Sequence record: PV808484.1
DNA from: a phage
Length of the DNA: 64,000 nucleotides
Strand: one strand, 5' to 3'
Of this stretch, positions 1-4,042 are shown piece after piece; the stretch's first letter is position 1, and every line of letters begins with the position of its first letter. The notes under the pieces are model-generated. The model made no database searches. It was not told the DNA's origin and worked only from the letters and a program-made list of their open reading frames with translations. The position numbers were made by a program, and so were the translations under genes.

Positions 1-707
1 ATACAGGTCATCTTTACATTTACACCTATGATGAACAAACTCAAACTGCTGAATATGTAGATATGGGTAGTTTGAAAGGTGATAAGGGTGAAAAAGGTGA
101 CGCTGGTACTAACGGTACAGACGGTGCAACTTGGATTGTTAAAACAACAGATCCAATCTCTAGTGATGGTAAACAAGGTGATTATGCCTTTAATATCTCC
201 ACTGGCGAGGTGTTCTTAAAAACATCTGCAACTGCCTGGACTTCTCAAGGTACACTGCCTAGCATCACAGATGCACCTAGTGACGGTAAAATTTATGCTC
301 GTAAAGATGGAGCATGGGAAGAACTCACTAGTTCTGTAGATGGTCAAGATATAGTTCCAACAAAAGTAACAGCTAATTTTATAGAGGTTACAGCATACAC
401 CAACAACTCTGTTACAGGTGACTGGACACCTCCAGGAACACATAACATGAATGTGTTGAATCTTACTGGTAACGCTACTATAAAAGCATGGCCTGGTGTC
501 GAAGATAGCACAAAACCTAAACCATTCTCTGCAATAGTTTATCTTATCCAAGATGCCACTGGGGGTCATACTGTTACTTTAGATCCATCTTATAAAGTAA
601 TTGGTTCTAGTGATATTAATACAGATCCTAACGGAGTAACAATACTACAACTAACATATTGTGGTGTTGGCGATTACGTGGATGCTATTGTTGCTAAACG
701 CACATAA
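1..707 (+). CDS. tail fibre protein with collagen-like Gly-X-Y repeats (5' end probably outside window)
   Basis: ORF 63..707 (214 aa); run GDKGEKGDAGTNGTDG; frame stays open upstream to window start (codons from nt 3), so true start may lie upstream. Confidence 0.6.
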   Translation, partial: TGHLYIYTYDEQTQTAEYVDMGSLKGDKGEKGDAGTNGTDGATWIVKTTDPISSDGKQGDYAFNISTGEVFLKTSATAWTSQGTLPSITDAPSDGKIYARKDGAWEELTSSVDGQDIVPTKVTANFIEVTAYTNNSVTGDWTPPGTHNMNVLNLTGNATIKAWPGVEDSTKPKPFSAIVYLIQDATGGHTVTLDPSYKVIGSSDINTDPNGVTILQLTYCGVGDYVDAIVAKRT

Positions 708-711
708 TCAA

Positions 712-735
712 AGCCCCTTCGGGGGCTTATTATTT
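712..735 (+). terminator. rho-independent terminator
   Basis: stem AGCCCC / GGGGCT with TTCG loop followed by TATTATTT, directly after stop at 705-707. Confidence 0.6.
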
Positions 736-746
736 AAGGAGATTAA

Positions 747-3575
747 ATGTATCCTATTCCTTTATTTATGTCAACAACATCAGCTTCAGTAGTAACAGCT
801 ACATCTATAACTACTTCCTCTATTGGTATTGCAATAGTTGGTAGTAAAAAACAACTGACATACACAGTTACACCCGAAGATGGTGCGTTATTTGATATAG
901 CTTTTTCATCTTCAGATGATACCAAAATGGTTATAGATAATAATGGTATGATGGAGTTTGTTGCCGAAGGTGGTTTTGATGCAATAATGACAGCTAAAAA
1001 TAATTTAGGTGCTGTCTTAACTGATCAATCTGGTGGTTATGCTTCAGAATTAAGCGTGTACACTGAAAGTCTATCGGCTATGGATGTAGGCACTACTCAA
1101 CAGTTGGTTGCTACAATCAGCCCAGAAGGTGCTAAAGACCTTCCAGACATGGTAATTACATACACCACAACAGATCCAGAAGTAGCTACTGTAAGCCCTA
1201 CAGGATTAATAACTGCTCTTAAAGATGGCAATTGCCGTATAGGTTGTACTGCAACGTATCAAGGAACAGTTGTGGCCTCTGATAGTTCTTATTTAGGTGT
1301 TAATGCTATTCCTGTTATTTCTAATGTAACAGCCGTGGCAAACAGTTATGGAGACGTTCGTGTTGCTTGGGATGTAACTGATCCGCTAGACGGTGATACT
1401 TATACTGTAGAAGTATTAGATTTAAGTAATAACAGTGTCCAGTGGACTACAACAACCACGAATACTCATGCTTACTTTGATATCTCTGACTCTATTCCTC
1501 TTTATGGGTTTGCTCCAACATACCTTAAAATTAGCGTTAAGAGCACCAAAGCAGCACCCGTTATCTTTAATAACTCAATAGCTACAGATGATTCGTTCAT
1601 TAAAGAAGTTGTTGTCTTTGCTGGACAAGATAACGTAAATGCACACTTTACAGAATTATCTGGTGCAAATAAAGCAGCAATGAGTAGCACAACAGCCCGT
1701 AATGCATATGCTACGCAACGTGGTTTAGCAAATGCTGAAGTTCTTCCGTTAAATACAGCTTCTGGATCATCAGCAGCAGATAAATATGCTGACGATAAAG
1801 CTGGAACAGGTACACCAGACAACTACTGGTATGATCTGGATAACACAGCAGATGGGCCATGCTTAACTAACTTTATCACTAAAGTCACACCTTATGCAAG
1901 TAAGGTTAAAGCCATTATTTGGGGACAAGGTGAAAATGATGCTGTATCAGCATCTTCAACTGTTGCAGGTAGATACAGTAACACTACACGTTACCATGAT
2001 GCTACGATAGCTATCTTTGATAAGATGCGTACAATAGTTCCTGCTTCTCAAGCAAAAATTGTTTGGCAGATCCTAGGACGTTCTTATTTATATGGTGTAG
2101 AAGTTAATGGTGTGGATTGGCAGAAGTACAGAAATGTACAAAGAACCATCTCTACAGCACGTGATGATGTTATCATTGGTTCTTGGGTAGATGGTGCTGA
2201 ACGTTACAGTGGTTATGTTTATGAAGAAGGTATTGATGGTCGTATCCATTATATTTCTTCTGTATACCAAACAGCAGCTACAAAACTTGCTAAATCAGCA
2301 GCAGACGGTACAGACTTAACATCAACGTCACCTGTTTGGGTTGATATGGCTGTTCCAACTGGAGCAACAGCTACTTCCCAACCTAATCAAGATACAATTT
2401 TAGCATGGGATGCTCAAGGCTATAGTAAACACTACTTCCGTAATATTAACGTCTTAACCGCATCTGTATTAACTGAACAAACGCTTAATACGAACAGTTA
2501 TACGTTTACCTATGCAGATCAAGTAGAACAATATGGTTTTGCAGCAGGAACTACTATATTTGATGTTGCATATTATGATGAAGCAAATGATGTGTTATCT
2601 CCTTTAGTACGTTTTAATGTTAACGTTACAGCAGGAACCGTAGAAGATAAACCTGTCGTGATGGATTATGATTTGACGCAAGAAACTCTCCCATCAGATG
2701 TTAAGGTTAATGGTGGGAACTCTTTTGCTCGTGCCTCTGGAGATATACTTGTAGCCACTAAGGCACCTGCTGGTATAGCTCCGTTGGAGTATGTTGGTAC
2801 TACCCCTGTAGGTAGACGTGTTGTAACAGCAAACAGTACACAAATTTTTGTCAACAACGCCTTAACAAGTGCAAGCCCGTGGGTAAAGACCAACTTAACT
2901 GTTGCAGCTTCATCGATCAACTCTCCGGCTGGAACTACAGCTAACACTTACAAGTTAACACCTTCTACAAATCCAGGACAACATATTTTATCAGCGGTGA
3001 ATACAGCTTCTGATATTACAGCAGGTAAACAATGGGCTGCATCTGTATTCTTGAAGCCAGATGGGATCACTAAAGTCAAGCTCAAATTGACTTCAGGAGA
3101 TGAGGTTAACGAAGGGACTTATGATCTTGAAGCTGGAACATTTACAGGCACAGATGCAAATATGATCGACATGGGGAATGGTTGGTATCGTGTAATCTTA
3201 CATAAAGTAACGATTGCTAAACAAGCCTCTATGACTTATGAGATTATAGCTTTGAATGCCAGTGGATCAGACACTTTTGCAGGAGATGGCACTGGAGGTC
3301 TTATTGCTTGGGTTCCACAACTTGAAATGGGTGATATGACAAACCCAGTTTGGGCGGGGACACCATTTGTTTGTACTTATGCACGAGACACAGATAGTGC
3401 TGCCACCTTCACTATTCCTAAGAACGGACACACTGGCGTGGATATTTACCACACAGATGGAACTGTGCAAAGAGAGATTTTCACTGGCACAGCTACTACT
3501 TGGATGTTGTCATTCAACGCCGCAAGTGCGGATTGGGGATCGAAATTCATTTCTGGTTTGAAATATTACGACTAA
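747..3575 (+). CDS. large tail fibre / receptor-binding protein with Ig-like (Big_2-type) region and possible SGNH/sialate-O-acetylesterase-like region
   Basis: 942-aa ORF, AAGGAG 7 nt upstream; Big_2-like segment (VGTTQQLVATISPEG...ATVSPTGLITALKDGNCRI); WGQGENDA resembles QGESN esterase motif (inference). Confidence 0.6.
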   Translation: MYPIPLFMSTTSASVVTATSITTSSIGIAIVGSKKQLTYTVTPEDGALFDIAFSSSDDTKMVIDNNGMMEFVAEGGFDAIMTAKNNLGAVLTDQSGGYASELSVYTESLSAMDVGTTQQLVATISPEGAKDLPDMVITYTTTDPEVATVSPTGLITALKDGNCRIGCTATYQGTVVASDSSYLGVNAIPVISNVTAVANSYGDVRVAWDVTDPLDGDTYTVEVLDLSNNSVQWTTTTTNTHAYFDISDSIPLYGFAPTYLKISVKSTKAAPVIFNNSIATDDSFIKEVVVFAGQDNVNAHFTELSGANKAAMSSTTARNAYATQRGLANAEVLPLNTASGSSAADKYADDKAGTGTPDNYWYDLDNTADGPCLTNFITKVTPYASKVKAIIWGQGENDAVSASSTVAGRYSNTTRYHDATIAIFDKMRTIVPASQAKIVWQILGRSYLYGVEVNGVDWQKYRNVQRTISTARDDVIIGSWVDGAERYSGYVYEEGIDGRIHYISSVYQTAATKLAKSAADGTDLTSTSPVWVDMAVPTGATATSQPNQDTILAWDAQGYSKHYFRNINVLTASVLTEQTLNTNSYTFTYADQVEQYGFAAGTTIFDVAYYDEANDVLSPLVRFNVNVTAGTVEDKPVVMDYDLTQETLPSDVKVNGGNSFARASGDILVATKAPAGIAPLEYVGTTPVGRRVVTANSTQIFVNNALTSASPWVKTNLTVAASSINSPAGTTANTYKLTPSTNPGQHILSAVNTASDITAGKQWAASVFLKPDGITKVKLKLTSGDEVNEGTYDLEAGTFTGTDANMIDMGNGWYRVILHKVTIAKQASMTYEIIALNASGSDTFAGDGTGGLIAWVPQLEMGDMTNPVWAGTPFVCTYARDTDSAATFTIPKNGHTGVDIYHTDGTVQREIFTGTATTWMLSFNAASADWGSKFISGLKYYD

Positions 3576-3580
3576 TAAAA

Positions 3581-3608
3581 AAGGAGCCATTAGGCTCCTT
3601 TTCTTTTA
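3581..3608. terminator. bidirectional terminator between convergent genes
   Basis: AGGAGCC-ATTA-GGCTCCT hairpin flanked by A-run upstream and T-run downstream. Confidence 0.6.
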
Positions 3609-3610
3609 TC

Positions 3611-4042
3611 TTAGTCAGTGAAAATTACGCTTACATCCTCTTTAGAAAAGAGTTTATGATCTTCACCTTTTGTTTCAAGAGTTTCATACAGGTTAAGAAG
3701 TTCTGAAACATCTTTCTCTACCAGTTTCTTCAATGTTGCAATTTTCTGTTTGCGACTCTTAATACGTTCAGCTACAACCTTACGCTGGTATCCGGCAGTA
3801 CGATAACCTGAGAAAGTTACACCAGTGAGACTTGCAGTTACAGGATCGTAGTGACGTTCAATCTGAAATTTATTAAAAGGTACAGCGTCATCACGAATAA
3901 TCTTACCTCCATTACTTACTTGACGAAGACCAGTAACTTGTTCCAGTCGTGCCATAGAAATCTTTGGAGACAGACCAGAGTCCAGGTTCATACCATTGTT
4001 AATCAGTGCTTTCAGGGTGATTTTGCTGTTCAGTGTACTCAT
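3611..4042 (-). CDS. hypothetical protein
   Basis: 143-aa ORF; GGAGG 8 nt upstream of ATG at 4042; 5' end overlaps 3' end of the methyltransferase gene. Confidence 0.5.
   Translation of the reverse strand: MSTLNSKITLKALINNGMNLDSGLSPKISMARLEQVTGLRQVSNGGKIIRDDAVPFNKFQIERHYDPVTASLTGVTFSGYRTAGYQRKVVAERIKSRKQKIATLKKLVEKDVSELLNLYETLETKGEDHKLFSKEDVSVIFTD

Follow-up and report, generated by a model that had tools for sequence, protein, structure and literature searches.

Introduction

SGNH esterase domains are already known on phage adsorption proteins, and the structure of N4 gp65, a non-contractile tail sheath and receptor-binding protein, has been solved (PDB 9lc0, 9yf4 and 9yf5). Here we describe a domain of this fold in a 942-residue protein encoded by a 64,000-nucleotide stretch of phage DNA (record PV808484.1; the whole stretch is referred to below as the window). 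The fold is that of the SASA (PF03629) esterases, which include NanS/YjhS and the structures 3pt5, 1zmb and 2apj and which share the SGNH three-layer architecture with the domain in the window. Escherichia coli NanS uses Ser19 and His301 as catalytic residues, its oxyanion hole is formed by Gln18 and a glycine, and a catalytic aspartate is absent (PMC9063846). A further precedent is provided by the family 2 carbohydrate esterases, bacterial enzymes of another SGNH subfamily, for which the title of PDB entry 2w9x describes the esterase pocket as a non-catalytic carbohydrate-binding site. The head spike fibre of the gene transfer agent RcGTA, Rcc01080 (6tb9), is a single flexible subunit that binds capsular polysaccharide and whose residues 2–10 are gripped by a pentameric base. 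Tail fibres and tailspikes of the G7C gp63.1 type are said, in work by Prokhorov and colleagues from 2017, to be active serine esterases in trimeric spikes.

The protein in the window is, in the reading that we favour with somewhat better than even confidence, an adhesin associated with the tail of a phi92-like myophage, modular and probably flexible, with an SGNH domain that is a pseudo-esterase because the nucleophile serine has become Asp295. The domain would descend from phage-tail esterase modules, with the N4 gp65-type sheath proteins as its closest serine-bearing kin, and the replacement of the serine in this lineage would have cost it receptor deacetylation. Purifying selection would then have retained it to bind glycans or to act as a spacer. 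Held on the virion by its N-terminal peptide, by analogy with Rcc01080, the protein would owe reversible surface-polysaccharide attachment and host specificity mainly to an exchangeable C-terminal domain, an attachment which the disabled pocket may assist; given the adhesin reading, we put the chance that this pocket binds a ligand at about half.

An SGNH domain related to N4 gp65

The original prediction had proposed an esterase-like region from the short motif WGQGENDA, which we locate at residues 392–399, and the structural evidence now bears out the fold. A word-indexed homolog search with residues 190–650 found six proteins only and an exhaustive search was needed; phmmer with residues 275–545 then recovered 76 relatives among 1.84 billion representatives. 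The AlphaFold2 model of the domain, built from an alignment of 27 relatives, has a mean predicted local distance difference test score (pLDDT) of 94.2 and a predicted template modelling score of 0.92, and presents a three-layer α/β/α fold with a parallel sheet that is structurally like the solved SGNH members. Its top Foldseek match is N4 gp65, with template modelling scores of 0.76–0.79, and the domain-family profile matches the same protein (annotated as ‘non-contractile tail sheath’) at E = 6.6e-87. Pfam SASA is matched by 16 of the 27 aligned relatives (best E = 1.4e-13). Because the model, the Foldseek result, the gp65 profile match and the SASA matches of the relatives all point the same way, residues 275–545 are assigned with confidence to the SGNH/SASA fold. 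The window protein itself reaches 15.0–17.3 bits against Pfam SASA (E = 0.004–0.02), below the gathering cut-off of 24.8, and this weak match spans residues 374–433, the region of conserved block III only. A distant member of the family (P0044) gave no phmmer matches among PDB sequences, and a scan of IMG/VR with the single domain returned just two loci, both near-identical.

N4 gp65 is the nearest solved relative of the SGNH domain together with the β-sandwich that follows it, a unit which is common to gp65-type sheath proteins and which is homologous to gp65 residues 725–1091. Two SGNH-like copies are present in gp65 (9lc0 chain I). The copy at residues 437–602 keeps the serine (GESQ) and the motif WGQGDQDA and is cut off before the histidine, while that at residues 725–989 is complete but has glutamine for the serine and tyrosine for the histidine. 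Both gp65 and the 942-residue protein are multi-domain, beads-on-a-string proteins; they differ at the N terminus, where the latter carries immunoglobulin (Ig)-like domains, and at the C terminus, where it carries the spike-fibre domain of a gene transfer agent. Neither NCTSP_N (PF23844) nor TIM-barrel_NCTSP (PF23845) matched the 942-residue protein at E <= 1. Since the host virion is that of a myovirus with a contractile tail, a sheath role of the N4 kind is excluded.

The same homology invites the suggestion that the module mediates the phi92-like dependence on the NGR glycan and the NfrA–NfrB–WecB pathway. N4 gp65 binds NfrA, the closest relatives of the module are of gp65 type and carry PF23844 and PF23845, and the Justusliebigvirus phages Bas60–62 need wecB and nfrB, as does N4. 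We nevertheless consider such a role very improbable. The genus Vequintavirus has the same dependence, yet no record of that genus (rV5-type) is among the matches listed, in which the Vequintavirinae are represented by Avunavirus Av-05 and three phages of equal identity (the phage-collection search with the domain gave 77 records, 17 of which lie outside the matches listed). The literature credits the shared dependence to another, deacetylase-type fibre, the gene is fragmented in the phi92 record, and the N4 literature searched does not establish which gp65 domain contacts NfrA. The module was rejected as an explanation of the NGR dependence shared with Vequintavirus on the absence of that genus from the matches listed.

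In some database records orthologs of the protein bear the name ‘tail carbohydrate esterase’, or else ‘non-contractile tail sheath’. A likeness of the gp65 domains to esterases is not pointed out in the N4 structure paper, phi92 gp152 is not mentioned in the literature searched, and the same literature reports none of the following: loss of the nucleophile, fixation of the aspartate, a link between a myovirus protein and podovirus sheaths, or the three-way shuffling described below.

Replacement of the nucleophile serine

The family consensus comprises GQSN after strand 1, W-QGE-D, and G-IHY towards the C terminus; the corresponding stretches of NanS read VAGQS19N, CWMQGEFD and SSH301F. Block I of the window protein is G293-Q294-D295-N296, so that the residue aligned with the nucleophile is an aspartate. 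In the model D295 lies where strand 1 (residues 287–293) passes into helix 1 (residues 295–301), the usual place of an SGNH nucleophile. The other positions of the site are present by alignment, their roles being taken from NanS: Q294, G340 and Q394-G-E-N-D398 would correspond to the oxyanion hole, and His501 to the catalytic histidine. An aspartate three residues before His501 is absent, as it is in NanS. Across the aligned copies of the domain the nucleophile column holds serine in 50 of 69, aspartate in nine and other residues in ten, and the block V histidine is kept in 45 of 53. The catalytic arrangement implied by an esterase assignment is accordingly found only in part, with Gln294, Gly340, the QGE-D block and His501 in place and the serine replaced.

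As the nucleophile serine is replaced by Asp295, serine-esterase activity of the domain appears unlikely from its sequence, and with it the earlier suggestion that a deacetylase in the fibre modifies the O-antigen or capsule receptor during adsorption. The domain thereby departs from NanS, which has Ser19 in this position, whose SASA membership is not shared here above the gathering cut-off, and whose type of enzyme differs from a domain set between two β-sandwiches of a putative virion protein. It departs likewise from G7C gp63.1 (4qnl), in having Asp295 for the catalytic serine and in giving no indication of a trimer. Automatic esterase or sheath labels that overlook the missing nucleophile can mislead the prediction of depolymerases or deacetylases when phages are chosen or engineered.

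An active O-acetylesterase could still be envisaged if Asp295, as a nucleophile or as a water-activating general base, acted with His501 to remove acetyl groups from O-antigen, capsule or another glycan as the phage adsorbs. We regard this as improbable. The nucleophile serine is missing from every ortholog examined, and the wider group of aspartate-bearing sequences also lacks the block I glutamine, the block III glutamine and sometimes the histidine, which would be unexpected for a working site. The esterase annotations of orthologs are automatic names and not tests. An aspartate nucleophile is not known from any SGNH hydrolase.

Ancestry and selection of the aspartate-bearing domain

The GAT codon is identical in ten records, the window and nine others including phi92, so a sequencing error does not account for Asp295. 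In the Avunavirus-type orthologs (Av-05 and P0001–P0005), which are 47–49% identical, block I reads GGDN, block III contains LGEQD and block V has histidine or glutamine; as far as these sequences indicate, the aspartate is common to the whole clade while the remaining catalytic-site positions drift. The aspartate-bearing sequences form one clade within serine-bearing relatives in a neighbour-joining tree, where they adjoin P0010 and P0011 (both GQSN) and P0009 (GQAN), although this tree carries no bootstrap support and is indicative only. The nearest relatives are gp65-type proteins, with NCTSP_N and TIM-barrel_NCTSP in P0008, P0009 and P0011; the P0010 gene lies beside a lysis cassette on a contig resembling phage DNA. 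A degenerate scan of metagenome DNA for VFAGQxNVxxHF gave three matches, none of them a close serine-bearing relative: another Justusliebigvirus (GQDN), a sequence with FAGQANVLGHF as in P0009 and an unrelated flanking translation, and one chance-like match.

Within Justusliebigvirus the amino-acid identity of the domain is 96–99.6% (55 records among the matches listed), and the domain is maintained under purifying selection and is not eroding. Several considerations nevertheless weigh against a pseudo-esterase so maintained. An hhalign alignment of the family to NanS covered block III alone and was a weak match, with a probability of 4.8%. Asp295 was mapped through the family alignment, the NanS motif and its position in the secondary structure. 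The pairwise ratios of non-synonymous to synonymous substitution rates (dN/dS) among six phages, 0.04–0.18 (about 0.1), come from few substitutions in pairs that are not independent. Finally, within Justusliebigvirus Gln294, Gly340, QGE-D and His501 are all intact and strongly conserved, and these could equally signal residual Asp–His catalysis.

Still more specifically, and as a tentative proposal to which we give rather less than even weight, Asp295 may mark a changed function, either as part of a non-cleaving lectin for an acetylated glycan or, less likely, through an Asp–His chemistry undescribed for SGNH proteins. Such a change would explain both the fixation of the aspartate across 47% divergence and the purifying selection. 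The family 2 esterase pocket is a precedent, from a different subfamily, for the pocket binding that may occur here. If the disabled pocket does bind acetylated glycans, it would represent a ready-made glycan probe, a case in which an enzyme has turned into a lectin for phage host recognition, and a module that holds its receptor instead of destroying it.

Domain architecture and exchange of modules

The original prediction described a tail fibre of 942 residues with a Big_2-like Ig domain. Length and domain were accurately given: Big_2 (PF02368) scores 54.6 bits against a gathering cut-off of 22.8, in two stretches. The label ‘tail fibre’ proves loose, since the protein is a beads-on-a-string arrangement of Ig, Ig, β-sandwich, SGNH, β-sandwich and lectin-like domains (Table 1) in which a trimerisation element was not detected. 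Its N-terminal peptide follows a hydrophobic pattern, M-Y/F-P-I-P-x-F, conserved across relatives. Pfam gave zero matches on both β-sandwiches, and the motif VVMDYDLTQE in the linker region opens the C-terminal module. The full-length model has a mean pLDDT of 64 and is poor in the SGNH region, where the alignment is shallow, and was used for the boundaries and the Ig and C-terminal parts only; compared with the PDB it matches N4 gp65 best, after which generic Ig-repeat proteins dominate. Because neither a coiled coil nor a β-helix is seen in the secondary structure of the monomer model, the protein would more probably be a monomeric beads-on-a-string adhesin than a trimeric fibre of the classical kind.

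The C-terminal domain matches Rcc01080 (6tb9) over residues 672–886 at E = 3.3e-14 and NCBIfam NF048003 with 72.3 bits (cut-off 36). By analogy with the RcGTA fibre it is probably a polysaccharide-binding, host-range module. The two proteins are homologous over the C-terminal 260 residues and both start with a short hydrophobic peptide, and the flexible, single-subunit, peptide-anchored, capsule-binding build of Rcc01080 matches the architecture that we infer for the 942-residue protein. Rcc01080 differs in its length of 325 residues, in its location on capsid pentons and in having neither Ig nor SGNH modules.

Three architectures were found at one genomic position. The short form (628–647 residues), which stops at the end of the second sandwich, occurs in muut, Av-05 and, in fragments, phi92; the long form, with the C-terminal domain, occurs in the window, EmilieFrey and PHB05. 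In the Phapecoctavirus form an RCC1-like propeller and Big_2 are joined to the same C-terminal domain without the SGNH cassette, as in ESCO37, whose positional ortholog (L013, 1714–4389) has 891 residues and an N-terminal RCC1-like β-propeller (Pfam PF25390/PF00415). The SGNH cassette is also missing from P0082–P0084. The C-terminal domain of the window protein shares 88% identity with its ESCO37 counterpart but only 64% with that of PHB05, although PHB05 belongs to the same genus, and residues 1–628 are 97–100% identical to PHB05; on this pattern of identities the C-terminal tip is exchanged horizontally, and it is likely to be the host-range part. The subfamily provides a clear case of natural module shuffling, with an Ig anchor, an SGNH cassette and a lectin-like tip in at least three combinations, and it has the cassette in common with podovirus sheath proteins and the tip with gene transfer agents. 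Since phi92-like phages infect a broad range of hosts, each of their adsorption proteins matters for host-range engineering.

These architectures bear on whether the SGNH module needs a ligand at all. It could be purely structural: binding no ligand, it would act as a rigid spacer or take part in assembly, by determining how far the distal domain extends or by touching other virion proteins. Consistent with this, the homologous gp65 domain 725–989 is itself degenerate, the gp65 sheath makes protein–protein contacts with parts that touch the tail tube and plug, the Avunavirus-type relatives show drift at the catalytic-site positions, the Phapecoctavirus relatives manage without the module, and short forms that hold little besides it are maintained. 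However, those same short forms offer no alternative binding domain among their modules (Ig, Ig, sandwich, SGNH, sandwich), so that a ligand role of the SGNH module is the simpler account, and Asp295 and the adjacent Asn are conserved over 47% identity amid varying surroundings. We therefore judge a purely structural role unlikely, though worth serious consideration, and retain the pseudo-esterase adhesin as the preferred reading.

The second sandwich (residues 536–620, window positions 2352–2606), compared with the loci L006 and L008, exists as two deeply diverged alleles, with a synonymous divergence (dS) of about 1.1 against 0.03–0.1 in the neighbouring SGNH domain. As these alleles are diverged and follow the short and long forms, a recombination boundary is placed near residue 536. 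In phi92 (NC_023693, 2905–4567) the ortholog lies in three frames (residues 1–198, 273–335 and 335–628, with 199–272 missing) and the record divides it into two genes, gp152 and gp153; the fragmentation stems either from old errors in the sequence or from disruption of a dispensable gene in a laboratory stock. In phage ALITA (L002, 14747–17566) the long-form gene is recorded as two open reading frames, a ‘tail carbohydrate esterase’ of 719 residues and a ‘tail protein’ of 172 residues, which suggests a break within the C-terminal domain.

The gene and its neighbourhood

The first 4 kb of the window are 92–97.5% identical to genomes of Justusliebigvirus, a genus of phi92-like E. coli myophages in the Stephanstirmvirinae, with Bas61 EmilieFrey as the top match. 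This comparison set aside a T5-like origin, which the size of the DNA polymerase had suggested. In EmilieFrey, bas61_0035 closes a long cluster that comprises genes for lateral tail fibres, tailspikes and baseplate components and is followed by convergent replication genes. The features of the gene and of its product are collected in Table 1.

Table 1. Features of the 942-residue protein, its gene and the flanking signals, in window coordinates.
Feature	Position	Strand	Remarks
Open reading frame, 942 residues	747..3575	+	Ends the tail-fibre cluster; orthologous to Bas61_0035 and phi92 gp152+gp153
N-terminal hydrophobic peptide MYPIPLF..., residues 1–19	747..803	+	Conserved; unstructured in model; possible virion anchor
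Two Big_2 Ig-like domains, residues 20–186	804..1304	+	Pfam Big_2 E = 1.1e-14; all-β, pLDDT 85–93
First β-sandwich, residues 190–274	1314..1568	+	FN3-like by shape only
SGNH/SASA-fold esterase-like domain, residues 275–535	1569..2351	+	Model, family search
Second β-sandwich, residues 536–628 (model 541–626)	2352..2630	+	PHROG 15324 match at residues 452–631
Linker, residues 629–679	2631..2783	+	Low confidence in model; predicted disordered
All-β C-terminal domain, residues 680–942	2784..3572	+	Homolog of RcGTA head spike fibre Rcc01080; pLDDT 76–95
Asp295 codon GAT	1629..1631	+	Catalytic-serine position of block I; GQ-D-N here, GQ-S-N in the family
Gly340	1764..1766	+	Aligned at the oxyanion-hole position (block II); glycine in 70 of the 95 copies aligned
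W392-GQGEND-A399	1920..1943	+	Block III, the motif noted earlier; aligned to NanS CWMQGEFD
His501	2247..2249	+	Block V histidine, equivalent of NanS His301 by family alignment
Terminator-like GC-rich hairpin	711..728	+	Between upstream fibre gene and 942-residue gene
Shine–Dalgarno sequence AAGGAG	736..741	+	ATG 5 nt downstream
Terminator, strong 10-bp hairpin then T-run	3579..3602	+	Separates convergent genes

Upstream, positions 63–707 (+ strand) encode the C-terminal 214 residues of a fibre protein orthologous to phi92 gp151. This part contains a collagen-like Gly-X-Y run, matches the C-terminal region of fibritin weakly, and resembles a classical trimeric fibre, unlike the 942-residue protein. 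Downstream lies a convergent open reading frame of 143 residues (3611–4042, − strand), an ortholog of phi92 gp154 with no NCBIfam match, which overlaps the start of a Dam-like methyltransferase gene by 44 nt. ARAGORN found no tRNA genes in the window (1–64000). The GC skew changes sign at about 41–42 kb of the window, which fits a change of the transcribed strand there.

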